Shown: positions 10,101-58,900 of the stretch, piece after piece
How the letters are laid out: each line of letters starts with the position of its first letter
Numbering within the stretch: position 1 is the first letter of the stretch
From: Squalus acanthias
Taxonomy: Eukaryota
Direction of reading: 5' to 3'
Assembly (NCBI GenBank): GCA_030390025.1
Contig: CM059432.1
Coordinates: 40,488,001-40,552,000, forward strand
Length of the DNA stretch: 64,000 nucleotides
Translations under genes and position numbers: made by a program
The notes under the pieces: generated by a model
Seen by the model: the letters and a program-made list of their open reading frames with translations, nothing else
The model's database searches: none
Told to the model about the DNA's origin: nothing

Positions 10101-13100
10101 AGAAAATGATTTCATCCAACTTATTTGTTTGCTGACGTTTTAAAATTGTATTTAAACTTGATCGCTCCTCCTCGTCTCACTTATAATTACATCCTTAGGT
10201 TATATTCATTTCAACACAGACGCCCTAGTGAAGTGTAGTGATAAGACGGCGAGTTATGGCTGCAGTGAGCTGCGTGATGGATTTGTACCTGACGCGAGAG
10301 TGCCGGATTTCTGCAAAGCTGCCAAGGCACCAAGTGGAAGCCAAGTAATTCCCCACAGGGAAGGTGGAAAAATTGGAGGAAAAGGCCACTCTCCTAACCT
10401 CTGGGCAGTCAGTTCAGAAGAGGACTACTAGAGGACCAAGAGTAGGTGCATCTCCCAGCATCGAACCGAAACACACAGACCAGGGATGTCCTTTGTTCAA
10501 TCCCAAGCTGGTGCTGATCTCAGCTGGAGCAGCAGTTGGGATGCAACAATTTAGCTCAGTATCACTGACCCACAGAGAGGAAACACGCACACGTGAAGAA
10601 TAGTCACCTGGGGAAGATGCTGGAGGGGACAGTACATGTAGACCCATAGCCCGGCATGAGTCAGCTCCTTCAGTACAGGAGGGGAGGGGGGGAAAAGCAT
10701 TGTCCATTGAGAAATGACAGCACACTTGCCAATAACGTGCCTCTTTTGGAATTTTTAAAATTATTGAAGTCACGCAATATTTACTTCACTGCATAAACAG
10801 AAGAGACAGCATGAAAAGGCTGTTTTGTTTTCAGATCCTGAATTAATTTTGCCAAAGTGTGAGTCATAGGGGATAAGAATTAGAGGTTGTTCACTTGCTA
10901 GGAAAATGTGGACCAGGGGATAGGAAATTACAGTACCATAACACTGGTTATTGCACAGAAGTTCAACATCACTATAACATCAAAGGAATCAGATTAAACA
11001 TCACAGAGCCATTTATCGGTGGGTAGCATCCAGTGTTTGATCCTTACATTGGTAACGACTGTTCTCAAATTTTGGATCATTGTCATTTTCATCAGCTACG
11101 AGTATGATCATCTGACAAATGCCGATTAGTGGCTCCTGAGCCTGGTCCGTTGCTGTCACTGACACAGTGTATTCTCGCTGATTCTCTCTATCAAAACTCT
11201 GGGTTGTGGTAATAGATCCTACAAAGGAATTTAAAAAAAATTAACCTAGCAACCAAGCATTTTGTGAATTGTTCTACTCCTTATTCAAATTAAATCTTTA
11301 ACCTGCGAGTCCCAATTATTTGAACTCACAGTTACTCAAAGCAACTATTTGTCTTCTTAGTGGGCTGGATGGAGCTACTTTACTGCACTATATTCTTGCG
11401 AGAAAGAGTGCATTTAGATAACAGAAGCTCCTGATTGAAAACAAGCAGCACAAGTTGATGATGGACTGTAACCCTCATACGATCTTTTCAACAGTTGAAG
11501 AATTTAGACAGTATAATGATCAAAGTGTTTTAACTCCAGAGTTGACTCTCACTACTAACAAGGTGGCAGGCTAGGAGAATGCTACCATTGTGGATGGACA
11601 TGTTGGCATAGAAGTTGGTTTGCATTGTGCCCATTTCTTTAGGTGTAAAACAGATGCAAGTCACACCAATTTATCAATGGGATGGCTGCGCTCAATCTGC
11701 ACAGGCGTTGGGTCCATGGCTAAGTTTGTCAGGCTAATTTTTAAGATTTCCCAGCAGCCTCCTAAAACAGGTGTTAGATCCCTTGAATATGTTAATTAGG
11801 AATATGTTAAGTCCGTTGAAGGACCCCTCTGCAAAATTTGTTCCTGGTGAGTGGGACAGGCGTCGGGCTTGCCCCACTCAGGATTCTTCAGCAGCCCACC
11901 ACTAAAGCGAAGTTATTTTACATTTTTATAGAAAAACCTTTATGTGGAGCCACAAGGAGCAAGACTGCTCTCCCTGACTCCACAATCATTGCGATGAAAA
12001 ACTACCCAGTTATCCTTTATTTGTTTACCGTTCTCTCAAAAGATACCCTGACAACAGTAACTTTCATCATAAAATCATAGAAACTTACAGCACAGAAGGA
12101 GGCCATTTGGCCCGTCATGCCTGTGCTGGCTCTTTGAAAGAGCAGTCATACTTAGTCCCACATCCCCGCTTTTTGTCCGTAACCCTGTAAGTTCCTCATA
12201 CTCAAGTACCTGTCCAACTCCCTTTTAAAATTATTTATGAATCAGCTTCCACCACCTTTTCAGGTACAACGTTCCAGATCCCGACATCGGAGTGAAAAGA
12301 TTTCCCCCCATCTCCCCTCTAGATCTTTAGCCAATGATTTTGAATCTATGACCTTAGTTATTCACCCACTCTAAAGCAGAAACTAAGATGTATTAACTCT
12401 ACCTTGTGTAAATAAGTTGATTGGGTCACAATAAGAGAATGTTGTACTTTTTAACCTTTTTAGTGTGCATCTCTTCTTTTCTTACCTTCTCTCTTCATGG
12501 AACTCCAATCAGAAAAATGCAACCAGAACTGCAGATGCAGCAATCCGGATAGGAAATGTATAGGACAAGCTACATCCTCTCAGCTTCTATGATCATCATA
12601 TTTAACCTGCCTGATTGTAATAGAGCCACCTGGTGGACGACTGATGTATATAATAATAAAGCCATATGCAGTACAGTTCTTACCAGAAGCCATGTTATGC
12701 TGTTGTATATATATGCTGTGTCTCAAGATATCACAGAACTGGCGATGAGGATGCGATTGCGGATTCCCTAGCTGAAATTTTTGCTGGAGGATAATCCTGC
12801 CAACTGACAGAGGGACTGTTAGAGGTTCTTCGTTTTGCAGAAAAACTTTAAAATCCGAGGTAAATTTCGAGCACACGTGGCTGAACTGTCGACGTTGCCA
12901 GAGTCCAGATGGCCACGCCTATGAGAATAATAGGGTGTTTGGGTGAGTTCCATCACGATCGAGAGACTTTCGGAGCGTATGTGGAGGGGCTAGAAATGTT
13001 TTTCACCGCGAATAGTATCGTCGAAGTCCCCGATGATGTAAACCGTAACCGGGCGGTTTTAGAAATGAAACGGGTTATTTTTTTGACTGAAGCAGGCCCC

Positions 13101-16100
13101 GAGGTGCATGAAACCCTGAAAAATGTGCTTGTTCCCGCCAAGCCGAAGGACACGCCACTGAAGGAGATCCTAACCAGGTTAGAACTGCACTACAGTCCTG
13201 AGCCCCTGGAAATTGCTGAAAGTTATCGTTTTGGAACATGTGATCAATTAAATAACGAGGGTATCAGTGAGTACATTGTAGCTTTAGAAAAAGCTATCTA
13301 TTCACTGTCATTTTGGAAACCATCAGGACCGAGCTTTGCGTGACCGCTTTGTTTGTGGGTTGAAAAATGAGCATATCAGAAGTAAATTGTTGACAACCTC
13401 CAACCTGACTTTTGACTTAGCTTGTCAGACAGATATGTTGATGGATATGGCCGACCGATACTCCCGAGAGTTCCGCACCATTTCCAGTCATCAGACAACT
13501 GAGGTGAATCGGCTGCAGACTAAAAGTAAAAGGCAGTTGGGCCCCAAAGCCTCAGCAACTGGCCAAGGTAACAGTGCATTGAAGTCATGCTATAGGTGCC
13601 AGGGACAACACATCGTTCAAAGCTGTCCATATTGACGGCAAAGTGTTTTTACTGCAAGAAAACTGGGCATCTTGCGAAGGCGTGCCGACAGAAGAGTAAA
13701 CCGACTGGCAATACTAGAAGTAGAAATCACCAGACACTGCATACCATTGAAGAGAAGCAGCAGGACGAGGAGTTTCTGGAGATTCACGTCATCAGGAGCA
13801 CGAAGGTATCTAACAGCGATTCGCGAGGTATCATTATCCAAGTAGATGTCGCAGGAACCAGGATACCCATGGAAATCAACACTGGTGCATCCGTGAGCGT
13901 AGTACCAGAATCACTATATCGCGACAAGTTGTGTGATTATCGACTAGAGAAATCGAAGGTAGAGCTGCGAGGTTACTCAGGAGAGCAAATCCCTGTAGTA
14001 GGAAGTGTCACCATACCAGTGAAATACAAGGATCAGTGTCAGAGCTTGCCTCTAATAGTGGCAGGAGACAAGCCTGCCTTGATAGGTAGAAATTGGTTGG
14101 GATCATTGAAGCTGGATTGGAATGAGATTTTTCGCGTGGAAGTGAAATTTGCATCGAAAGATGATGTCATCAAGCAATATCTGAAGGTGATCAGAGAAAT
14201 GGGCAGTCCGATCCAAGACTTCAAGGCGAGTGTCAGAGTGCAGAAGGACGCAAGACCAGTTTACTGCAAGCCACGTCCCGCACCATACACACTCAAGGAA
14301 AAAGTTGAGCAAGAACTCAAAAGACTAGAAACTGAGAACATTATCTCTAAGGTAGATCTGAGTAATTGGGCTACACCCATTGTTGTTGTAGCTAAGTCAG
14401 ATGGTAAGGTAAGGTTGTGTGGTGATTATAAGGTAACCGTAAACCAGGTTCTAGAGTGTAATCTACCCAATACATTGCCAAATGTGGAAGATTTGTTCAC
14501 AACACTGACAGGTGGCCAGATTTTTTCGAAGTTAGATCTTACAAGTGCCTATTGACAACTTGAGTTAGATGAAGAGTCCAAGTCATGCTTGACTATAAAT
14601 ATTCACCAAGGCCTATATCAGTTCAATAGGCTACCATTTGGAGTGTCTTCTGCCCCGGACATATTCCAGGGGGTGATGAGCCAAATTTTGCAAGGGATTG
14701 GAAGGGTAGTGTGTTATTTGGATGACATACTCATTTCAGCACCAAACAGGCAAATCCATGATGAGGTGTTGAATGAAGTGTTCAAACAGCTAGAGAAGCA
14801 CGAGTACAAGTGACAGCTCACAAGTGTGAGTTGTTTCAAAACTCAGAGGAGTACTTAGGGCACAGAGTAGACAAAGATGGTTTACATCCAACCAAGGGAA
14901 AGCTGGATGCAATCAGAAATGCACCCACTCCCAAGAATGTCTCTGAACTTCGATCATTTTGGGGTTTTTGAATTATTATGGAAAGTTCCTTCTAAACTTG
15001 GCTACATTGTTACATCCACTGAATGAACTGTTGAGAAAACAGGTCCCTTGCAAGTGGTCAAAAGAATGCGACACAGCATTCAAAGAGTGTAAAAGTCAGT
15101 TAGTAGAGAGTACCATGTTAGTTCACTATGATGTATCTAAGGAGATCAAGTTAGCGTGTGACGCCTCTCCGTACGGAGTTGGGGCAGTGATCTCTCATGT
15201 ACTAGATAGTGGGGAGGAGAGAACAATTGCTTTTGCTTTACATTTCTCAGTGTCAGTGAACGGAATTATGCGCAGATCGAAAGAGAATCTTTGTCATTGA
15301 TTTTTGGGGAGAAGTTTCACAAATACTTGTTTGGTTGTAAGTTTACCATAGCTACTGACCATAAGCCCCTGACAGGAATCCTCCATTCAAAGTCCCCAGT
15401 TCCAACCTTAGCTGCAGCCCGAATGCAGAGGTGGGCTTTGATTTTGTCCATGTATATGTATGACATTGAGTACAGACGATCAGCTGATCACAGTAATGCA
15501 GATGCTATGTCCAGGTTGCCATCCCCATCACAAGTTACACCCAATAAGGAAGAAGTGTTCTATTTCACACATGGATGAGCTGCCAGTCACAGCTGAAGAG
15601 ATTGGTATGGCAACCAAACGTGACCCAATGATGTCAAAGGTATATGATTACATAGCAAATGGATGGCCAAGTCAGGTATCAGAGGAAGATATACATCCAT
15701 ACTTCGTTCGTAGGAATGAATTGTCAGTGGATAATGATTGTATCATGTGGTTATCCCAAATAGGTTCAGGTCTAAATTGTTAGGAGATCTTCATGACCAG
15801 CACCCTGGGAATGTGCTTGACCAAGAGTTTTACATGCAGTTACTTATGGTGGCCAGGTTTAGATAAAGAGATAGAGTGCATAGTCAGTCAGTGTACATGA
15901 TGTCAATCGGTGAGCAAGAAACCACCATCAGTACCATTACAGCCATGGAAATTGCCTCCTAGAGTGTGGCAGAGGTTACATGTAGATTTTGCTGAGCTAG
16001 AAGGACAGCAATTGTTCATAGTGATAGATAGTCACTCGAAGTGGGTAGAGGTGTTTCCGATGCGGATAATAACAACAAGCAAAAGACTAGACAATTTGCG

Positions 16101-19100
16101 AAGATTGTTTTCTTCATACGGCCTCCCAGAAGAAATTGTGTCTGATAATGGGCCGCAATTTTATTCAGAAGAGTTCACACAGTTCATGAGCAGAAACGGT
16201 GTGAAACATACCAAAGTTCCACCGTACCATCCTGCTTAAAATGGTGCGGCAGAGTGCACAGTACAAATTGTCAAACATGCCCTCATCCAGCAAATGTTGG
16301 ATCCAAATCCAAAAAAACGTCAGCTGTCATTGGACCACAAACTGGCAAATTTTCTGATTACCTATCGGAATACTCCTCATACCACTATTGGTAGAAAACC
16401 AGCAGAGTTGTTTCTCAAACGACATCCATGAACCAGGTTCTCATTGTTAAAGCCAAACTTGGCACAGTCCGTAGAAGAGAAACAATCAAGGCAGAAAGAG
16501 AGTCATGATAAAGGTAAGTTAGAGAGAGAAGTGTGAAGTTGAACCAGAAGGTTAGAGGGAAGAACCATCACTATAAATTATTAAAGTGGTTACCAGGAAG
16601 AGTAGTGAAGATCTGTGGCCCTCGCACATACTTGGTCAAGATGTTTGATCATGGAAAGGTTAGGTTTGTTCACATTGATCATATCTTACCTACAGATGTG
16701 GAAGGAGTTGAAAGCTGGGATGATTCAATTTATTCTGATGGGTCGGATAGTCTTGTTACAAGTAGAATACCAGTAACAAATTCTACATCAGATGTACCAG
16801 AAACAAGTCCAAGACAAAGTCAGAATTTAAGTCTGAGCCCGAGTCAGGCAGACAAACAGTCTGAAAGTATAGAGAGTCCAAATGCAGATCAAGGTCAGCC
16901 CTTGGAGAAATATTCTCGGCAGGCTCAGCCTAGAATGAGTCAAAGTCCTACAACAAGATCTGAAAGTTCTGTTTAAGAAAGAAGGTATCCTCTTCGAAAC
17001 AGAAAACCAGTGGTTAAGTTTAATCTGTAAATATGGAAAATAAGTTCATATCTTTTGTTTGTGTTACAGAATTCTATAGTAGAATTTGGAAACATAAAAT
17101 GGGTTCCATTTGAGAAATGTATACCAAGAGTTGTGTATATCATGCAAGTCATGTACAATGATTATTTGCTATGATTAACTTCTTCAATAAGGAGGGAGCA
17201 GTGTAATAGAGCCACCTGGTGGACTACTGATGTATATAATAATAAAGCCATGTGCAGTACAGGCATGTTGTGCTATTGTATATATATGCTGTGTCTCAAG
17301 ATATCACGCGACTCAATTAAGTTGCTGACGACAAAGCTGCAAAGTCAAAGGTTAGTGCTCTAAGAGGGATACCAAGCTGCTTCCATATTTAAAAAACTAT
17401 GATTTATCCCACTAAGCATTCGCACATACTGAATTGGTGCACTCCAGTATTTAAACAACCAGAGCTACATCCTTCCTGTACAGTAATAACAAATTAAATG
17501 GAAAACCTGAAATCCATGAATCATTGGGGCCTTTTTTTCAGCCAGAGGAAACATCTTATTTCTTGAAATTTGTTAATGTCCTTCCCAGATGCCCAGGATT
17601 CAGCAACATCAATTTTTTGAAAAGACTAAAAATTGTAAACAAATGAGCAATAATTTGTCTACGAATCCTTGTTGCAGTGTTCATGATTTCAAGAAATTCT
17701 AGTTTGCATTGGATAGTTTTGTTTACTTCAGTTTTTATTGCAAAGTAACTGAGCAACACACTCACCAGTGTCAGGATTAATATGGAAACCTGGAGTAACT
17801 CCATCTCGAATCATGAGTCCATATTTCACCTGTCCATTCACTCCAAGATCAGCATCATAGGCCTTGACTTGTAGTACAAACGTTCCAGGAGGCTGGTTTT
17901 CCAAGACACAGGCATCTTCACTGTATTTTAGACACTGGAATAAAATTAGAAATACAGCTGATCTCACACCCAGTCTTTCCTGAGTGTCCATGAAGCTATA
18001 ATACAAGACTGCATCACTTCTGTACTTCCAGCTCGGATATAACTGAGCTGCGAGGAATTTCGTAAAAGGAAAATAACAGATTGAGCAGGGAAAGTTCAAT
18101 GCTGCGAGTAAAATAATGGGTTCTGACGAAGGGTCATCAACCTGAAACGTTAACTCTATTTCTCTCTCCACAGATGCTGCCTGACCTGCTGAGTATTTCC
18201 AGCATTTTCTGTTTTTATTTCAGATTTCCAGCATCCGCAGTATTTTGCTTTTGTAAAATAATGGGGTTGATTTAAGGAATCAAGTTTGCTTAATTGATTT
18301 TATTTAAATTAAGTGATACTTTGCTCTCATTCATTTGGAAGATACTTAAAAAATTATTTTAAGTTTTATTTGTTTAAAGAATGTTTCAGTTACCTCTAAG
18401 TGAGCTGGTATCTTCTTCCTCTAGATTAGCAATAGTGATAATCGATGACAGTAAGCCTATCAGATGGATAACCTACAATAAGGGATCAGGCTGCAATTAG
18501 GTGGGAATGTGCATTGAAATTATAACTCTGGCAAGCAACCGAGGTGCATTTTATTGTAAATTGTAAGATATATCTATGTCTTATTAAAAATCTTATTTCT
18601 GTATTCATTTCCTTAGCTCCTGTTTGTGACTTGCTTTGTGTCAAGTTTTTCCATTGTAAATTCCTATATCCACATTTAATATTGAACAGCGCTATTGTTA
18701 TTATGGGTCTGGCCACCAGCTGGTTCCATGAATCTAATTTACGACCGGCCTGTCCCAGCTCGGCTGCCATTTTGGTTTTTGCCTAACTGATTTTTCCTCT
18801 CAGGTAAGTTAATTTTAAACTTAATTTTTGAAGTTTTAAATTTAAGGTTTATTTTTAATTTAAGTAGTGATAATCTTTACTGTAAAGAATTCTGATTGAT
18901 GTCATTAGACCTCGACTTTTGCATGTCAATGGGGCCCTCGCCTGCTTTGGACTAGGGCCTCACTCGCTGCCCAAAACGTGCCTGTTAAAATGGTGCTATT
19001 GCGGCATGGACAAGGTAAGTAGCACACAGCCGATATTTTAACCCCCGCCATGACCCATTCTCGTCAAACACTGCGTGTTAAAATCAGGCCCATCATGTAC

Positions 19101-31100: not shown

Positions 31101-34100
31101 CCTTGACCAGTATGTTCTCGGCCCAACTAGGAAGGAGGCTTTGCTGAATCTTGTGCTGGGGAATGAGGTGGGCCAGGTCGACCAAGTGTCTGTGGGAGAA
31201 CACTTGGGTAAGAGTGATCATCGTATCATAAGATTTAGATTAGTAATGGAGAGGAGCAAGGAACAATCTAGAGTGGAAGTTCTAAATTGGAAGAGGGCAC
31301 GGACAAGATGGGCCAAATGGCCTCCTTCTGTGCTGTAAATTTCTATAATTCTATGATTCAATGGGATGAGAGGGGATCTAGCCAGCGTAAAATGGAAAAA
31401 ACTGTAACGGAACAATGGGTGATTTTTCAGGAGGAGATGTTTCAGGTACAGGCTAGGTACATTCCAGCAAGAGGGAAAGGTAGGGGAACCAAAGCCAGGA
31501 CTCCTTGAATGACGAGGGAGATAGAGAATATGATGAAACAAAAAAAGAGGGTGTATGATGCATGTCAGGTGAATTCTTCAAGTGAGAACCAGGCCAAATA
31601 CAGTAAGTTGAGAGGGGATGTGAAGAGGAAAATAAGACCATCAAAGAGAGAATATGAGAATAGAATGGCAGTTAACATAAAAGGAAACCCAAAAATCTTC
31701 TACCGGCATGTAAATAGTAAGCGGGTAGTAAGAGGCAGGGTGGGACCTATTAGGGACAAAGAAGGTGATATATGCTTAGAGGTGCAGGACAAGGCTAGAA
31801 TATGTAATGAGTACTTTGTATCGGTGTTTACTAAGGAAGAGAATGCTGACAAAATATTGGTAGAAGCGGAGATGGTAGAGGTAATGGATGGGGTGAAAAT
31901 TGATGGGCAGGATTGTACTAGAAAGGCTGGATATGCTTAGAGTGGTTAAGTCGCCTGGTCCGGATGGCTTGCATCCCAGGTTGCTAAGGGAAGTGGGGGT
32001 GGAGACAGCGGAAGGGCTTGCCATAATTTTCCAATCTTCCCTAGATGCGGGGGAGGTACTAGAGGATAGGAAAGCGGCAAATGTGACACGCCTGTTCAAG
32101 AAAGGGTGTAAGGACAATCCTAGTAACTACAGGCCGGTCAGTTTAACATCAGTTGTGGGTAAGATTTTAGAAACAATAATCAGGGAAAAAATTAACAGGC
32201 ACTTGGAGAGGTTTAAGTTAATTAAGGAGAGCCAGCACGGATTTGTAAAAGGCAGATCGTGTTTGACTAATCTAATTGAATTTTTTGATGAAGTAACAGA
32301 GAAGGTTGATGAAGGGAATGCAATGGATGTTGTCTATATGGATTTTAAGAAAGCGTTTGACAAAATACCACATAGAAGGCTGGTTAACAAAATTGAGGCT
32401 CATGGAATAGGGTGGGTCAGTGTCAGCTTGGATAAGAAATTGGCTTAAGGACAGAAAACAGCGAGTCATGGTAAATGGTTGTTTTTCAGACTGGAGGATG
32501 GTAGACAGTGGTGTTCCCCAAGGGTCAGTGCTGGGACCACTGTTTTTTTTTGTTATATATAAATGACTTGGATATTGGAATACAGAGTAAAATTTCAAAA
32601 TTTGCCAATGACACCAAACTTGGAGGTGTGGCAAACTGTGAGGAGGATACCAATTGATTGCAACAGGACATAGATAGGCTAGCAGAATGGGCAGACAAGT
32701 AGCAGATGGAATTTAATACAGAGAAGTGTGAGGTGATGCATTTTGGCAGAAGGGATAGAGAGGCAATATAGACTTAGTGGCACAGTTCTAAAGGGTGTGC
32801 AGGGACAGAGGGACCTGGGGGCTCATGTGCATAGATCTTTGAAGGTGGCAGAACATATTGAGAGAGTAGTTTGCAAAGCATATGGGATCTTGGGCTTCAT
32901 AAATAGAGGTACAGGAAACTCTCTTTTAACCGGCACCTAAATATCCGGAAATCTCTCTTAACCGGCAAAATTCAGGAGTAGGTTCAGGTAAGTTTTACTA
33001 TATATTAGTGGCCGTGTAACCGGGGTTCCTGCACCTGTGGCCGTGCACCAGGGACTCCTGGATCTGTGGCCATGTAACCGGGGTTTTCCCTCATCACTCT
33101 ACACTGGATCGTAGCATTATATGAGCCAAGTCTTTGCTGAATGCTCGCTGTAAGATCGCTGTAAGATCTGTCACAAGACGGGAGATGCAGAAAACATGCT
33201 GTTGTGTGATGGCTGTGATCGAGGGCACCACACATACTGTTTGAGACCAAAGGTTAAGGTTTGTACATAGTACTTTTTAAATCAAAAAACGTGTAGTTTA
33301 AAATTTTATTCTGGCTACTCAAAAGAAAATTCTTTAATGTGACCGGGGCTCCTGCACCTGTGGCCGTGTACGGGGCTCTCGTACCTTGGTAAGTATACCT
33401 CTCTGTCATCCGGACTTTTTGATCAACCGGCACCACGCCGGTCCCGTCGGTGCCGGTTAATAAAGAGTTTCCTGTATTGAGTACAAAAGCAGGGAAGTTA
33501 TGCTGAACCTTTATAAAGCTCTGGTTAGGCCACAATTAGAGTATTGCGTCCAGTTCTGGTCACCACACTTTAGGAAGGTTGTGTAGGTCCTTGAGAGGGT
33601 GCAGAGGAGATTTACCAGAATGGTTTCAGGGATGAGGGATTTTAGCTACAAGGTTAGGTTGGAGAAGCTGGGGTTGTTCTCCTTGGAGCAAAGGAGGATG
33701 AGGGGAGATTTGATAGCGGTGTACAAGATTATGACGGGTTTGAATAAGGTAGACAGAGAAAGGCTGTTCCCATTAGCTGATGGTACAAGGACTAGGGGGA
33801 CACAGATTTAAGGTTTTGGGCAGGAGATACAGGGGGATGTGAGGAAGAACTTTTTTACACAGTGAGTGGTAATGACCTGGAACTCGCTGCCGACAAGGGT
33901 GGTGGAAGCAGAGACAATCAATTATTTCAAAAGGAAATTGGATAGGCACTTGAGGGAAATAAACTTGCAGGACTACAGGGATAGAGCGGGGGAATGGGAC
34001 TGACTGGATTGCTCTACAGAGAGCCGGCACGGACTCGATGTGGCCACCTTCTGTGCCGTTATGACTATGACTCTAAACTTGGAGCACCAGTACACACTAA

Positions 34101-37100
34101 CTCAGTGCTACCCCACTGTCAGGCCATCTACCTTAAAAAGCCTCAACGGAGGTAGTATGGATGTTCAGATTTTCGATTCAACAGGATTTTACTACAAATT
34201 TGGTAGGAATACACACCAATATCAGCATGGTGCTGGCACCAAACTTACTGTTTAACAGCAGAAGTAAATGCACATTAAATTGGAACCCGATATGTCTGGA
34301 GTAAAGCTGACAAGCTGTTTGGAAGCTTCAAGCTACAAGGAAATATTTTAGCAAACTTGGAACATCAGCTCATTAAACAAAGTCAGTTGGTGTGTATAAC
34401 GATGTCAAATCCTCTCGCTACTTCTCTCCTGCAGAGGTGGTTTAATTTGAACAATCTCATATTTCTGTCGTGACATGAGTAATCTTTCATTAAATATTCC
34501 TTTTAAGGTAGCAAGGAGGTTTAATTAAATATACTTTCCTTGAATCTCCATTTTTATAAAGCTCAAATCTAATTTATTTATAAATGAGTGAAGCACAACC
34601 AATTGAGTCAATGTTGACATTTCTAGATCAAAAGTGACCTGAAAATAATCAAAGGAGAAACTCGCATCATTAGAAGCATTGCCAGCTTTTTCACCATAGT
34701 AAGAAAACTCACTTCGTTCTGCCTTGACAAGATGGCAGCAATAAAAGGCCAATGTTTTTCTCTTTGTTGTTGGATGTGAAAGCCTTAATCTTGCAAATAA
34801 ATAATGTTCAGCCCTTGCAGATGTGTCAACATTGAAAACATAGCAGAGACAACAAGGAAGCTGGAGCTGGGGGACTAAGTAAAGAGCTCAGATGAGATTT
34901 TAACAGCAGGCTCATTCCACATGCACCTCCAGCATCCCTCACTAATGAAAACACTGCTCCAGGCTCCACTCAGCTCCTGTTAGGAGTGGATCCAATATTT
35001 GCCATAATATTTTAAACACACCCTGGGTACATTCCCTTTACAATCTGCATTAATGTTTCAAATCTAGTCCAATCATGCAGTCATTTTCCTCCAGAGGGAA
35101 TCGATTTGGACTAGATCTGAATCATTAGCTTTAATTTCTGTTGACTTAACTCCGGAGAATCTTTTAAATTATTTAATTAAAATACAACTATTCACACAAT
35201 TCTGAATCAATTTAATAATCAGCCTATTTTGATGCATTCTCCTGATGTATTTTCAAATGTTTTAATCTCAAGAATGACTTGTTTTTAAAATCACCATTTA
35301 AAATATACTAACAATTTTACAGTTTAAGCTTTAAGATTAGCAATGAACTGGGTATTTGTCTTCTCCCTATTATGACCGAGTTTGTCACTGCGCTTCTAAA
35401 AAAAGGAATACATCATAACACCACAACTTGGAAGCTCTTGCAATTTATATGCATTGAGAACTGTTAGCTAAATTTGTCTCAATGCCAAATTTTGTTTGCG
35501 CTCTACAAGGCACAACGTGGTCTGGGAAATTGTACATCTGTTGTAGCAGAGGAGCTGGCATTGGGGCAGTCCTCTTGGTGACTGTGGAGCCAATATGTAG
35601 TTTGCCTAATGTCTTTGGTGGCATACATTTTGTGCACAATGGGTGCATGCAGCATCTTACAGGTAAGATCAATCTTCCTTTAATGATTGGAGCCATCTCA
35701 GTATCGCTGTGTTTCCATGAGATTAAGCAGCAGAAACTACCTAACTATACCAAGGAAAATACAATTTCAGCTTTAACTGGCTTTAAGCAATGCAAAACGG
35801 ACAATCATTCCAGTAAATTGAATGTCATAATGACAAAAGGTTGATTACATCCTAGTAAAACAGTCACATTCTGACATGATGCCCCAAAAGCAGATGGAAG
35901 CACGGTAGATAATTCCAATGGACGGTGTATCTTAGCACTTCTGAAATGGAAGAATTGTGAGTCACCTTTCCACCGACTGCATTTACATGAGGTCAATGTG
36001 CAGATTAATTTGCTACTGAGTAGCTTTTTGATTCAATGATGAGAGCATTGGAGTGTATCGGTTTTCTAGCTTCTTATACAGAGCAGATATCAAAAGTATT
36101 GAGAATTAATCACTATTCCAAAAGGTGTTAAAATATACCAACAAATATTTTTAACTGTATACTCTAACTAGATTAATGCGTTTTTTCTGTTTACTCTAAT
36201 TGATCTAAATTATCATCAATTTACTTCATCCCAAATCAGTTTATAGCAGTCAACACACATAAAACAAATTTGGAAGCCCAGAAATGAATGTCTGCTGGCT
36301 ATCTGCTTTCTGAAACGAGTTTGTACAGTTTCAACCAAATTCCTAGTGGGCATCAATCCATAGTTTAAAACTGACCCTAATTTAACACTAATTAGCATTA
36401 AATTGTTGATCACTCAGAAAGACTACAGAACGGCTGGTTTAGAAAATTGAAAGCACTGAGGTTGGGCCTGAGTCGCATTGTTAGGACAGAATGGAGGAAG
36501 CTTGATACTGCATTTAACTATGCCTGACCTGGGAGTGATTTATGCTGGCACTGGATGCCTGAAAATAGAAAGTGCTCCATTTCACAGCACTAATATCGCT
36601 TTATGAGCACAAAATTCACGAACAAAATAGTGGAAAAAAACCAAATTGAGGATAATCTAAAGCAATTTAATTTCTGAATTGCATGAAGGACTTGTATTTG
36701 TTTAATGCTTTATTACATCTGCCAGAAACATCCTATAGCATTTCCCCTACAGTGAATTACTTTCAAGTGTAGTGAGATGTTATTACGTAGACAAATGTGG
36801 CAGCCACTTTGCACACAGCTAGATCCCTCAAGCAATGAGATGTAATCTGTTTTTACTGGTATTGGTTGAGGACACCATAAGAACTCTCTGCTCATCTTCA
36901 AATACTTCCATGGGAGCTTTAACATCCACCTGAACAGACAGATGGGGCCTTGGTTTCACATCTTATTTGAAGGACACTAACTTCAACAACACAGCACTCC
37001 CTCAGCACTCATTGGATCATCAGCCTAGATTATGCACTCAAATCCTGGAGGGGTTTGACCCCACAGCATTCTAACTCAGAAGCAAGAGTGAGCAAAGGTG

Positions 37101-40100
37101 ACACTGCCATCTATGGCAAGCTGATACTAAGGTAGGAAAAACGTCAGATACTCCATGGCAGGAAGAAGTATGTGCACGAATACTCTAGTGCTTTTTTTTT
37201 TATAAAAGAGAAGCATATGTACAACCTTGCAATAAAGAGGTGCCAATCGGAATGTTTTCGGGAATGTTGTCACGGCTGTAGATAGAATGCAGGAACTCTG
37301 GTGTACAGTCGTTTTCATCAATGATGTGAATTACTACCTGGAAAATAATTGGCAAACAGTAAAAATCAGAACTCCTCAGAAGCAAAGTGAGATAAAATGG
37401 ACGTCAGTTAACCTGAAAAAACGACCATGAACAATTTGCTCCAGTAGCATCACTTTGAGGAACACATCAGCAATGAAAATGCAAGGCCCAAAGGAGCAAT
37501 GTCTCTCATCAGATATTCAGTCTGGATACAGTCGGGGGAATGAGAAAAATAATAGGAATGCTGGCAAACCAGCACATTAGAAAATGTATATTATCAGTAA
37601 AGAATCATGTACTGGATATTGCTGCGTTATAACACTTTTGGTTAGTGATAAAAATAGACCATCGACCTTTCAGATATGGTGCACCATTTTGGATGTATGA
37701 AAATGAATTGAAACAGGAATCTATGTGATCTCAGTTTCCACATGTACGCTGACGACACCCAGCTCTACCTCACCACCACTTCTCTCGACCCCTCCACGGT
37801 CTGTAAATTGTCAGACTGCTTGTCCGACATACAGTTCTGGATGAGCAGCAATTTTCTCCAATTAAAAATTGGGAAGACCGAAGCCATTGTTTTCAGTCCC
37901 CGCCACAAACTCCGTTCCCTAGCCACCGACTCCATCCCTCTCCCTAGCATCTGTCTGAGGCTGAACCAGACTGTTCACAACCTTGGCGTCATATTTGACC
38001 CTGAAATGAGCTTCCGACCAGGTATCCACGGCATAACTAAGACCACCTATTTCCACCTCCGTAACAATGCCTGTCTCCGCCCCGCCTCAGCTCATCTGCT
38101 GCTGAAACCCTCATCCATGCCTTTGTTATCTCTAGACTTGACTATTCCAATGCACTCCTGGCTGGCCTCCCACATTCTACCCTACTTGAGTCATCCAAAA
38201 CTCGGCTAACCGTGTCCTAACTCGCACCAAGTCCTGTTCACCCATCACCCCTGTGCTCGCTGACCTCCATTGGCTCCTGGTTAAGCAACAGAACCCTTGT
38301 TTTCAAATCCCTCCATGGCCTCGCTGCTCCCTATCTCTGTAATCTCCTTCAGCCCCACAACTGCCACACCCCCCCACCCTCACCGAGATATCTGCGCTCC
38401 TCAAATTCTGCTCTCTTGAGCATCCCTGATTATAATCGCTCAACCATCGGTGACCGTGCCTTCTGCTGCCTAGGCCCTAAGCTCTGGAACTCCCTCCCTA
38501 AACTTCTCTGCCTCTCTACCTCTCTTTCCTCCTTTAAGACGCTTCCTAAAAACTACCTCTTTAACCAAGCTTTTGGTCATCTGCCCTAATATCTTATGTG
38601 GCTCAGTGTCAAATGTTTGTCTTAAAACACTCCTGTGAAGCACCTTGGGACATTTTACTACGTTAAAGGGGCTATATAAATACAAGTTGTTGTTGTTACG
38701 TTGTGAGTTAGATGAACACAGTGTTAATGGTAACACATGATGGATGATCTCGCATTCCCAATGGAGAGCGTCACTCGCTGGAAGCAAATCCCGGAAGGAG
38801 TACGACTTTTGACCTGCTAGGGCTGTTTCCCAATAGAAGTTCCAGATGGGGGAATTGTATCTATAATGAATATTTAGTATAACAGATCCATTTTTATCCA
38901 GCTGTAGATATGCTATTAAGTCCAGGAGAAGTGGCCTAAATATTGTTGTACCCATTTTATTGGCCTAAAATGAGCACAATGATAACCAATTTAGCAGGGC
39001 AGGAGCCCACACCCAATCTACATGAGCATTCGGGCCACTGGTAAATTGGTTGGGGCCTTTTTTGAGGCAGCTGTCGTGGATGCCTGAAATGAGCTCAAGC
39101 CTCATTTCAATATTGAAATGAGGCTTCTGCACCTATTTCAAACTTGGATTACTGAAATAATTTGCACTAGTCAGTAGATTGTGCTGCACAAGCTCCAACT
39201 AGTAATTCCGGGGCTTGGGGAGACTAACCAGCGGTCCTTAAAATGGCCTCTGGAGGACCCTCAAAATGAAGGCCTCCAAACTTTCAAAATTTCGCTTTCT
39301 TTGGAGTCAGAAAGAGATGGAGCGCTCCTCCTGGCTCCGTAAAACAACTGCAGCTGCTGCCAGCCCGCTCTCGCCCTGATCTGCAGCCTGCCCCCTTCCT
39401 AATCACCAGGGACTGTCCCTTAGGGTCCCCAGCTGCGGCCTCCTGCCGCTGGCTTTCCCACCCGGCAGCTGACCAGCCTGTCAGCAGCTCACCAGCTTGT
39501 CAATTTAGCCGACTGCCGGGTGGGAAACGGAATTAAACATTTATAATGAGGTCCTGCCACTAAATTCGGCAAGACCTCAGCGTCCCTGGCATTGTCGGGT
39601 TCTTTGGCCGCTTTCGGCCTCCCCCACCTCACTATAAATACAGTAAACTCTTGTTTAAACGGCACTTAATCATCCGGAATTCTTTAATAACCGGCAAAAT
39701 AGATAACTGGTAATCTTGCCGAATCCATCCAGCACTCGTTTTTCCGAGTCCGAGTTTCCCGCGGTGGCCGAGTTAGTCAGTGGTTTTTATTTCTTTTGTG
39801 TTAAAAATTGCCTACCTCTCTTATCCAGAATTTTTCATCAACCAGCACCATTCTGGTCCCATAGGTGCCGGATACGAAAGAGTTTACTGTATCGGGGCTA
39901 ATGATTCAGTCGGAGTGGCTTAGAGGTGACACAAGGGCGCATTTTGAACATTTTTGAAGTGTTACAGCTTTGGAGCCCCATGCTGATTGTTCAGTGGATA
40001 AATGCACTGCATGGAGTAGCACTAAACCATATGAAGGGCCCAGGTTCAATCTCTGATCTGTCATGAATTCACCAGTCTTAGCCTGGAGGGTAGCAGGGCT

Positions 40101-46100: not shown

Positions 46101-49100
46101 GTTATAGTTATGCAAAATCCGTGCGGATTTTTAATATTCCCAGATTACTTATTCTGAAAAATGCTACCATAAGTTTCAATATATTAAGAGACATTCCAGA
46201 TTTTGAGGTTTTAAACCTCTAAGGTGTATTCCTTAGTTGATAGAGAACTGTACACTTTTGATAGATCTCACCATTGTAGTGTAGTTCTCAGGTAGTACTA
46301 GTTTCTAACTAGCTCTACATTATTTCGAACCAAGATCAATGTGGTTCGTGTTCTGATTGTACTACAGGAAACTCTTTATTAACCGGCACCCAAATATCCG
46401 GAAATCTCTCTTAACCGGCAAAATTCTTGAGTAGGTAACCGGGGTTTTCCTTCATCTCTTGTTTAAGATTAACTTTTTTTAAAAACCCGAGGCGTTTGCC
46501 TTGTATCGGAGCGTGTAGATTGGGAGGGGAATGTGCAGCCCGGGTAGGCAGCGGACACGACAGATGGTCAGCTGGCGGTCCCCGGGGAGACGGAGCTCCG
46601 AATGCAGGCACATGTCAATGTGTACGGGGCTCTCGTACGTTGGTAGATATAACTCTCCGTTATCCGGACTTTTTGATAAACTGGCACCACGCCGGTCCCG
46701 TCGGTGCCGGTTAATAAAGAGTTTCCTGTAGTATGTGACTAACTCTACATGACAGAGCAGAAACCAGTGCTTGAGCTGTATCAATCTGTAACTAGCTCTG
46801 CAAATACAGAATAAAGCTGAGACCTGTAAGTATAAAGTCCAGATGTATTAGTCGAAAATTAGTTACCCAGAAGTAAACAAAAACAATCGGGCTCTGAGAA
46901 TTCAGTATACAGTATCGATGATTGTAACTCTAGTGCAATAGTATAGCTAAAGCAATGACACCAGCAGAAAGTTCTAATATAGTGCAAAAATATACTGATA
47001 AGTACAGTGCTGCACTTCACAAGTTAAGAGTCTAATAACATAAATGGAAACTGTGCGAGTCAGCTCTGATTTTCCATTAGGTGCCTGCATTTTTATAAAT
47101 CAAGTGACAGCGAATGCAGAATATGTGCATGGTCAGGACCTCGGGGATTAAGTAAACTGAAGAAAAGTGAAATCAGCTAACTATGGGTGCGTTTATTACA
47201 CTGTGTTCAAAGGAATAGAGAAACATTTTAAATTCTTTTTAAATGTGAGTATCCTCATACTTCACAAAGGTAGATTTTTTTTTCTAAAAAGGGGGCAATA
47301 TCTATATGAAAAGATGGTTGGCAAATCTTTACAGTTTCCCTACCACTATCTGTGAATTGCCTTGGGATATTCTTTACATTAAATGTATTATATAAATGCA
47401 AGTTACTGTTATTCTGAACCTTCATCCTTCCCAAACAACGCAAAGGAGTTCATTCCAGACACTTTTTCATGAAGACACTACCCAATTAAAATGTTTTACT
47501 TTTTTTTCCACACTATCACTAGTATAAGCAGCCCAGATGGTCGGTTAGTATTCCAAATGCATCTTTATACCTTGAAGACCACTGGGATAAGGAACATATG
47601 TGACATGACTGTAATTTGTTTTTGTTTCAAATTTTATTCCCTTCCCTACCTAACACAAGTGACCCATCTTTGTGTAAGTGAGTATCAGAAAGCTAATGGA
47701 CTGTGGGAACATCATAACTGACTCCAATCCTATTCTTACCCACATCTATACAGGCGCAATCCTGGGCAGGTGTCACTTGGGAACAGGAACGCCTGCCAAC
47801 CAGGAATTAAACCTAGGATCTCATGGACTGTATGACGTAATACAACACTAGGCAGTGCCTTTACCCACTAGGCCACTGAGGTAGTTCGATATAAATCCTA
47901 AAATGAATTCCGATCAGGTATTTATGCAGAATTCACTCCTGTTGCATTCTTAGAGCAAGCTCCCCTTGGAATGACTATATCTGTGCTTTTTCTGCTTCCA
48001 ATACCCCTTTGAACACTGATTGCTCTTTGCAGGTTTCAAGCTCCAGCACAGACACACAGCACTTTTAAAAGATAACAGCAGCACAAATGTGTATGCTTAA
48101 AATATTGAACATTACAAGGCATACACAACTATCCAGCATGCATTATTTACAGTATTCTTTGAATAACTATGGTTACTTAAAAGTCCTGCTCTCTTTTGGG
48201 TTTCCTCTTCAAAGAGATTGGCTGTTAGCTTGATTCTATGGTTGCACCAGAGATAAAGGCTGCCATTTCGCCGACCATGGAGGCCGGGGTCGGTGTCGCG
48301 GTCCCAGCCCGCTGCCTACTGCAGCCTGTACTCTCCAAGTGATTTTACGTTGATGGGCCTCGTTAAGCCCGCCCTGCGAGGTTTCCGAACAATTAAAAGG
48401 AAGCGGGTCTGATGACGTCATTTGATGACGCATCATCAGCCGGTTTCCTTAAAGGGGCCATGTCCAAATTGATTTTGACAGTTCTGTTGTCAGTGTTCTA
48501 CAGCATTGAGGTGCTGCAAACACTGACAATCACAGAGGTGCAGGGCTGCACCCAGACTCTCCCATGACTCCCTCCATATGCTTATGGGTGGAGTCACAGC
48601 ATGCAGGGAGGTTCTCTTCCCTTCCCATGGGCGGAAGAGACCTCCGCAGGAGATCAATGCAGCCTGGTTGCACATTGCACAGGAGGGCACAAGCAGGGAT
48701 GTCATCAGGAGGACCAGGCTGCAGTGGCGCAAGCCTTTCAATGATCCCAGTAGATCACGAAATGTTACTTCAAAGCCACACTCAACCTCATCCCGCTATG
48801 CCACTCATCACATCCACATCACTCTGCCTTCCCTACCCTACTCCTGCACATCTTTACTCACACCAACTTACCTTGCACCTCCACCCATCCCTCTCTATCT
48901 ACATTATCACTTCCCCATTTCACTAGCCACCCCTCACACATACCCTCATCCTACTGCAAGCATACCCACTAACAACACACAAGGGTAGGTACTTGGGTGA
49001 TTTAGCCAATGTCCATGTAAAGTTTCTGTTAATGTGCTGTCAAACATTGAAATCTTTATTTTCAGCACTTTGCGTTCTTGGACAGATTTGTGTGCACCTT

Positions 49101-58029: not shown

Positions 58030-58900
58030 CAGGGTGGATACTGGGAGTGCAGCGTGTTTTCACCTCTGAAACATGGTTTCAAATCCAGTGTAGACTAGTT
58101 TAATAAAAGTCCTGTATCTGTTGGCTGTAAGCATCTTATGTAAGATGAGTCTGGGTAGCCTCAAGTAAGTTCCTAGTGAGCATAGGACCAGAACACAAAA
58201 TTTCCTCAAATTCAGTACAGGAAACTTTCGTTTATCCGGCATCGACGGGACCGGCGTGGTGCCGGTTTATCGAAAGTACCGGATAACGGAGAGTTATATC
58301 TACCGAGGCTATTTTTAACAAAGAGACTCCAGGCAGCGCGGGAGAATCAACTCCTGCTACTGCGGTGTTTCGGACTTCCGACAGCGCCAGGAGGCCGAGT
58401 AGTGGCACTTTTGAAAAGTACCCCTACTGACTAAATCGGCGTTCGCGGACTCGGACTCGGACTTGGGATCGGCAACATTGCCGGTTATTTGAGAGGAGTT
58501 TTCGGAGCACTCGGCGTTCGCGGAGACTCGACTGCGACTCGGCAACATTGCCGGTTATTTGAGAGGAGTTTTCGGAGGATGATTTTTGCCGGTTAAGCGA
58601 GAATTCTGGATATTTGGGTGCCGGATAAACGAAAGTTTCCTGTACTACATTGGCAATCTCATTAGAGAGGCAAAAAAGGTTGCCGGTGTGAGAGGTGGAA
58701 ATCTCACATACTGGTGCAGGATGCTCTTCTGAGATTGGTGTTAAGGCACATTGTAGGGGAAGGGTAAACAAAGCTTTTACTCTTCATCTGCCTTGTGCTA
58801 TATCTGACTTGGAAATTCCTCATACAAATACTGGATGCCTGAAATGGGAAATTGTTACACTTTGCAGCACTCCAATTCCTCAGCTTGATAAGCAGAAAAA
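58030..58900 (+). mobile_element. LF-SINE-like element interrupted by a MITE
   Basis: Ordered motifs TTTCACCTCT, TTCAAATCCAG, ATCTG.TGGCTGT, GTTCCTAGTG, TTGGCA.TCTCA..AGAGAGGC and AGGCACATTG, as recalled for LF-SINE. Confidence 0.65.
58218..58642 (-). mobile_element. pogo/Tigger-like element, copy 3 (reverse orientation)
   Basis: TIR CAGGAAACTTTCGTTTATCCGGCA(T/C)C 25/26; TA duplication; internal about 70-bp direct duplication. Confidence 0.92.

Follow-up and report, generated by a model that had tools for sequence, protein, structure and literature searches.

In the main text of the animal survey by Tan et al. (2021, PMC8277862), gene capture by TIR elements is described as nearly always single-copy and independent of transposition. 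Four multicopy cases, from frog and alligator, are counted there among 370 Pack-TIRs, the worked example having three copies, and four Ssk-FB4 copies are recorded; the words 'shark' and 'BAZ1A' do not occur in that main text. In plants, Pack-TYPE elements (Pack-MULE, Pack-CACTA, Pack-hAT, Pack-Mariner) gain pieces of multiple loci stepwise within a family, with clusters of more than 100 elements in maize and stepwise capture described in both maize and rice, according to the relevant portions of Gisby and Catoni (2022, PMC8903248). The pogo superfamily is defined, in the part of PMC7386202 used here, by a TA target duplication and TIRs of at most 40 bp, and a DD29-36D range is common to Tigger, pogoR and Lemi. 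A literature search, with Repbase, Dfam, subscription journals and the supplements of Tan et al. outside its range, returned no report of a BAZ1A-carrying element.

We analysed a 64,000-nucleotide stretch of DNA (the window), in which a preliminary description had placed a pogo/Tigger-like transposon with a captured BAZ1A PHD-finger exon. This element is very probably a non-autonomous Tigger-like pogo MITE, mobilized in trans by a 2.6-kb autonomous partner in the same genome, that captured a piece of BAZ1A and then gave rise to a series of further captures.

Structure and surroundings of the element

The element occupies 563 bp (32912-33474), with 24 of the 26 TIR positions complementary and TA on either side, as the preliminary description had it (Table 1). 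It was also said to be cleanly inserted in a CR1 ORF. Removing the element and one TA in silico restored a 16-residue stretch and let the LINE frame read through, which bears out the clean insertion; the open frame did not hold up, since the LINE is decayed and carries further stops elsewhere. The CR1 label is that of the preliminary description, our own support being the RT-domain match. The interrupted LINE is intronic to a cadherin-repeat gene on the minus strand, and the cargo is therefore antisense to that gene.

Table 1. Coordinates of the element, its parts and related copies in the window
Feature	Position	Strand	Remarks
Decayed CR1-type LINE interrupted by the element	31509..33900 (ends approximate)	+	RVT_1 E 1.1e-15 at 31897-32445
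Left TA target-site duplication	32910..32911	.	
Left TIR, 26 bp	32912..32937	+	24/26 complementary to right TIR
Left end common to autonomous pogo element	32912..32974	+	90% over 63 nt vs L187
MITE-specific 'long-left' segment	32975..33007	+	Missing from autonomous element; mostly deleted in short-left subfamilies
29-bp minisatellite units of empty parent MITE	33008..33083	+	L117 is the matching empty form
Left capture breakpoint	End of the 33008..33083 units	+	GG common to host and unit
Captured BAZ1A exon piece	33082..33258	+	3' (last) 166 nt of 248-nt PHD exon, plus 11-bp duplication; N-terminal PHD part
TGG -> TGA	33122..33124	+	Only this copy, 1/37 aligned
11-bp tandem duplication (frameshift)	33147..33168	+	Post-capture gain; varies between copies
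Captured BAZ1A intron piece	33259..33341	+	First 83 of 98 nt, identical to host; donor present, acceptor absent
Minisatellite unit resumes	33342..33383	+	7-nt unit piece flanks cargo on both sides
Right end common to autonomous element, including right TIR (33449-33474)	33384..33474	+	87% over 91 nt
Right TA target-site duplication	33475..33476	.	
Copy of 364-bp descendant family	46365..46728	+	96.7% to L083; BAZ1A relic 46443-46460 (17/18), then second middle
400-bp-type internal-deletion derivative of autonomous element, no cargo	58218..58642	-	

Exons of the large cadherin-repeat gene extend over window positions 1536-46000 on the minus strand, with Pfam Cadherin found in the four ORFs tested. 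An immunoglobulin J-like motif near 34230 was rejected, the exons of the window being minus-strand cadherin domains. On the plus strand, broken gag/pol-like ORFs at 12885-16976 mark an LTR retrotransposon, judged from the ORF list only. A roughly 250-bp older relative of the same TIR family lies at 39641-39889 (ends 75-83%), and a similar one occurs about 16 kb upstream of BAZ1A. Two consensus-like splice donors are present on the plus strand of the long-left MITE (32984-32992 and 33386-33394); both are gone from the short-left and 364-bp forms.

The BAZ1A source, the empty parent and the capture junctions

The cargo had been read as a PHD segment lacking its last two cysteines. Positions 33160-33258 indeed scored against PF00628 (PHD, E 8.2e-10), and the match covered profile positions 1-32 of 47 and ended there; the AAG|GTTTGT donor was present as described. 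The cargo was correctly located, with limits of 33082-33341 rather than 33083-33338. Its W-to-stop change is real and private to this copy. The 11-bp duplication is likewise present here and not universal: in a position-ordered sample, 14 of 35 exon-bearing junctions had none, 20 had one and one had two.

The host source lies at C1:64.81 Mb, where the cargo matches at 247 of 252 positions outside the 11-nt duplication gap. Within 140 kb at this locus, the single significant match to the element covered element positions 171-433, and no MITE arms adjoin the cargo source. A WAC-domain search led to two loci, this gene and a separate second WAC locus on C3393. Besides a first exon, the C1 gene comprises a WAC exon, two PHD exons and a bromodomain exon, and the best PDB match of the last is BAZ1A 5UIY (E 8.3e-20; next match 1.2e-6). 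By its WAC domain, PHD finger and BAZ1A-type bromodomain the parent gene is BAZ1A, as had been proposed. A PDB search with the PHD finger could not alone have named the gene, because no BAZ1A PHD entry was listed among 55 matches, the best being DPF2 and BAZ2B. Downstream of BAZ1A lies a cofilin-like exon; BAZ1A and CFL2 are presumably linked in other vertebrates. The consensus of 37 copies differs from the host solely by the 11-bp duplication and one site, and the predicted match to the adjacent intron proved exact (Table 1). In 220 kb around BAZ1A we detected no intact empty parent-type MITE, just an old relative at about 80%.

The cargo/right-arm junction had 152 genome matches with at most two mismatches, a count that takes in host segmental duplicates (seven loci with one shared flank) and unplaced contigs and misses decayed copies; the reversed control gave 0. 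Copies are thus many, with distinct flanks and TA duplications, as the preliminary description had anticipated, and none of the outcomes it had named as speaking against it, concerning source, intron match and copy number, was found. All 40 scored whole-element matches were full length, at 95-100% identity, and TA stood on both sides in all but two of the 30 examined. After removal of identical flanks, TA/TA was present in 29/31, 29/30, 7/7 and 2/2 loaded elements, and the 70 distinct flank pairs among the sampled loaded elements indicate repeated transposition after capture. Seven loaded copies with identical flanks (L010, L014-L016, L023, L027 and L029; C13:32.29-32.37 Mb, C1009) reflect a single insertion multiplied by tandem duplication of host DNA.

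The TIR pattern had 7,625 exact genome matches and the long-left-arm pattern 646. Among 30 long-left loci examined, 26 were empty minisatellite MITEs, three carried BAZ1A and one another middle. Around the cargo site both arms of the empty form L117 are identical to those of the loaded form, which equals L117 plus cargo. Unit number varies widely among empty copies; in one (L114:1459-2731, approximately) the 29-bp minisatellite is expanded, giving a 1,273-bp element.

Of 1,582 candidates from a search for DDE_1, 150 were scored and 30 examined; they revealed a 2.5-2.8-kb element with a 588-aa transposase ORF, whose ends are common with the MITE at 86-94%. One copy (L187) has CENP-B_N, HTH_Tnp_Tc5 and DDE_1, and an ORF of at least 580 aa was kept in 11 of 24 complete sampled autonomous copies. 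The transposase spacing from D298 to D331 is DD32D, inside the Tigger range of DD29-36D. The family thus shows the features of the pogo superfamily: TA duplication, 26-bp TIRs and a partner with a CENP-B-type HTH and DDE_1. As the MITE and L187 share ends alone, at 86-94%, its actual partner may be a more closely related autonomous element.

Capture had been ascribed to the DNA level. A spliced-mRNA template is ruled out by the retained intron, and that part of the claim stands; a nascent pre-mRNA template is still compatible with the cargo. Such a course, in which reverse transcription filled a break in the MITE with a copy of an unspliced BAZ1A transcript before the product transposed, would accord with the gene-sense orientation of the cargo, the abundance of LINE reverse transcriptases here, and the 7-nt piece on each side of the cargo, which resembles a target duplication. 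The repeated 7 nt, however, belong to the minisatellite unit and are explained by unit switching. No poly(A) tail is present, and each junction shows microhomology with host sequence (GG on the left, 7 nt alike in host and unit on the right), a style that recurs in a later 170-bp capture. We regard an RNA template as improbable.

The shared ends, TA duplications, empty parent, intermediates and host sources for two cargos are directly observed, and from them we infer a capture by template switching. While an empty MITE was being repaired or replicated, synthesis would have broken off inside the 29-bp minisatellite, moved to BAZ1A through short microhomology, run there for about 250 nt over the exon/intron border and then returned to the MITE. 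Because both ends were kept, the loaded copy could then have transposed and amplified.

Probable descent of the loaded, 364-bp and 531-bp forms

For the descent series, 40 of the 100 listed junction places (152 matches) were sampled in position order, those examined earlier being left out. They gave 41 junctions: 32 short-left, three long-left with exon and six tail-only (about 346 bp). Among the 41, a host-like full intron occurred only with a long left arm (one tail-only copy had no readable left arm), and 31 of the 32 short-left copies had a trimmed intron, the remaining one having a larger deletion. Two long-left copies with trimmed intron are intermediates, as are short-left AG forms.

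The commonest TIR-bearing element, 364 bp long, accounted for 14 of the 19 complete elements sampled in position order. Its number with both TIRs exact is about 2,100, extrapolated from the first 100 listed TIR matches, in which 28 pairs spanned 363-365 bp. It begins with the derived 78 nt of the short-left loaded form, followed by the first 18 nt of the BAZ1A cargo and a CpG-rich 160-nt middle; the 18-nt start lay directly upstream in 41 of 42 second-middle stretches, the other being truncated. A derived TT in the left arm was present in 20/20 364-type, 21/21 531-type and 22/30 short-left loaded elements, and in 0/22 empty and 0/31 long-left full-intron elements.

The source of the 364-bp middle was not found in BAZ1A and its flanks (220 kb), 50 kb at the third-cargo locus, the autonomous element or the other loci examined. 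Pattern searches for an armless middle returned MITE copies only (15/15, and 4/4 including one with a SINE-like insertion); the chance that either search would pick up the source was no better than roughly one in two, so absence is unproven. Host DNA is a candidate for the origin of this middle. One 364-bp copy (L262:958-1754) contains an approximately 430-bp SINE-like insertion with a short target duplication.

In the 531-bp form, 170 nt are added between the 364-type middle and the right arm. All 27 candidates for this third cargo were scored; 26 lay inside MITEs and one was armless (L239). The armless locus, at C2:200.40 Mb, is 97.6% identical over 170 nt and about 100 nt downstream of a TATA-like motif, and no gene was identified at this site. 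The ancestral arm junction survives in the 364-bp form, and the 531-bp form is therefore derived. Broken hAT-like transposase ORFs (family assigned by eye) lie about 6 kb from this source (L250-L251, C2:200.402-200.404 Mb, minus strand). Two elements with the same TIRs have other middles (L121 at C1:151.47 Mb and L172:14-310), with 74 nt in common at 97%; in L121 the left arm is of the long kind and the right arm of the 364 type.

Private non-CpG changes per site were 0.0039 in the autonomous ORF and 0.0041-0.0047 in the main MITE groups, the figure for the long-left group being biased low by sampling on similarity to the 32912-33474 copy; the tail-only group had 0.8% (n = 6). These similar divergences point to a single burst. 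By divergence, the 364-bp family shows no measurable sign of being younger than its proposed parent (1.6% vs 1.0% in total; private changes equal). An older asymmetric TIR was present in 5 of 20 364-type elements but in only 1 of 30 short-left loaded copies. Subfamilies must therefore have recombined, and the series does not form a simple branching tree. The right arms are mosaic across subfamilies. Taken with the older TIRs and the age of the 364-bp family, this indicates that switching between family members was common.

The same age and TIR data would also suit the reverse order, in which the 364-bp family was the original form, an 18-nt resemblance to BAZ1A that could arise by chance in 3.7 Gb guided the capture, and long-left forms arose by recombination with the empty MITE. 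This order is strongly disfavoured: a full host-like intron with a short left arm was seen in 0 of 32 copies, and next to the cargo the long-left arms are identical to those of the empty L117. In the forward order that we prefer, copying errors like those of the capture itself would have produced the 11-bp duplication, the intron trim, the left-arm deletion and the autonomous-type right arm. Nearly all of BAZ1A would next have been replaced by the second middle, giving the 364-bp family with its 18-nt relic, and the third, single-copy host piece would have been inserted last (531-bp family).

Fate of the cargo and comparison with known capture systems

In 63 copies the exon cargo showed 44 distinct changes, nine of them synonymous against 11.6 expected under neutrality, and there is thus no sign of purifying selection. 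Judged by its letters, the cargo is a passenger, with neither ATG nor acceptor, half a PHD finger (two zinc ligands missing) and neutral decay. A working cargo, donating a PHD exon to other genes or acting on BAZ1A as a small-RNA source, is very improbable: an open 55-codon frame with the native donor is kept in 12 of 34 sampled exon stretches and a contig crosses the intron and right junction in a run of guessed RNA status, but the substitution pattern is neutral, start codon, acceptor and half the finger are missing, most copies are frameshifted, the most successful descendant has lost the cargo, and the 32912-33474 copy is antisense to its host gene.

No run listed as containing the sequence is recorded as RNA. 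In three sequencing runs whose RNA status is guessed, host-form contigs cease aligning at 33258, as expected for a used donor. A 143-nt contig from organism C is identical to 33229-33371; it spans the right junction and reaches 30 letters into the arm, a single letter below the bridging threshold; the short-left joint is also present in this organism. In organism D a joint within the cargo links 33190 with 33327 (depth 79). Organisms C and D may therefore be leads to loaded forms in related species. In run X19 (organism F) the captured intron is uncovered, a blank that is no proof of absence.

The family shows a plant-like capture mode in a vertebrate-type genome, with about 150 copies of a coding-exon piece. 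The empty parent, intermediates, two source loci and an open-ORF transposase are all present and about equally young, so the capture steps can be read at junction level, and capture is testable with the native transposase. The family also indicates that a capture history can hide in a plain-looking, abundant MITE, and mapping and annotation of BAZ1A will be confounded by the roughly 150 near-identical pieces of it. We give little credence to a bolder idea, that the minisatellite MITE is a standing capture machine that repeatedly takes host DNA, its commonest member stemming from the BAZ1A capture, with BAZ1A copies feeding germline small RNAs that also hit BAZ1A itself, which encodes a chromatin-remodeller subunit, so that the cargo would affect silencing or spread of the family.

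Among vertebrate systems, bat Helitrons likewise multiply exons, introns, promoters and UTRs as DNA elements, but they are rolling-circle elements without TIRs or TA duplication (Thomas et al. 2014, PMC4224331). MER6, a vertebrate Tc1/mariner-group MITE, likewise spread a foreign insert, a SINE V domain, during a burst; its cargo, however, came from another mobile element rather than a host gene, in one ancient event (Luchetti et al. 2019, PMC6887750). Plant Pack-TYPE families resemble ours in that pieces from several loci are added stepwise within one family. They differ in that Mariner Pack elements are mostly low-copy, and the plant model is capture via neighbouring insertions, of which we saw no sign here (compared with the relevant portions of PMC8903248). 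The closest likeness is to animal Pack-TIRs as set out in the main text of PMC8277862: TIR elements with an internal host fragment, a TIR-free parent, breakpoint microhomology, distinct TSDs and copies far from the parent. Unlike those, this family has about 150 junctions, a coding-exon cargo, a Tigger-like chassis, an open-ORF partner and several capture steps. Its insert is flanked by TIRs and a TSD, its parent loci (BAZ1A and the third-cargo locus) are non-TE and TIR-less, a cargo-free version exists, and transposition was repeated after capture. We class the family as a Pack-TIR that has reached an unusually high copy number and captured sequence serially.
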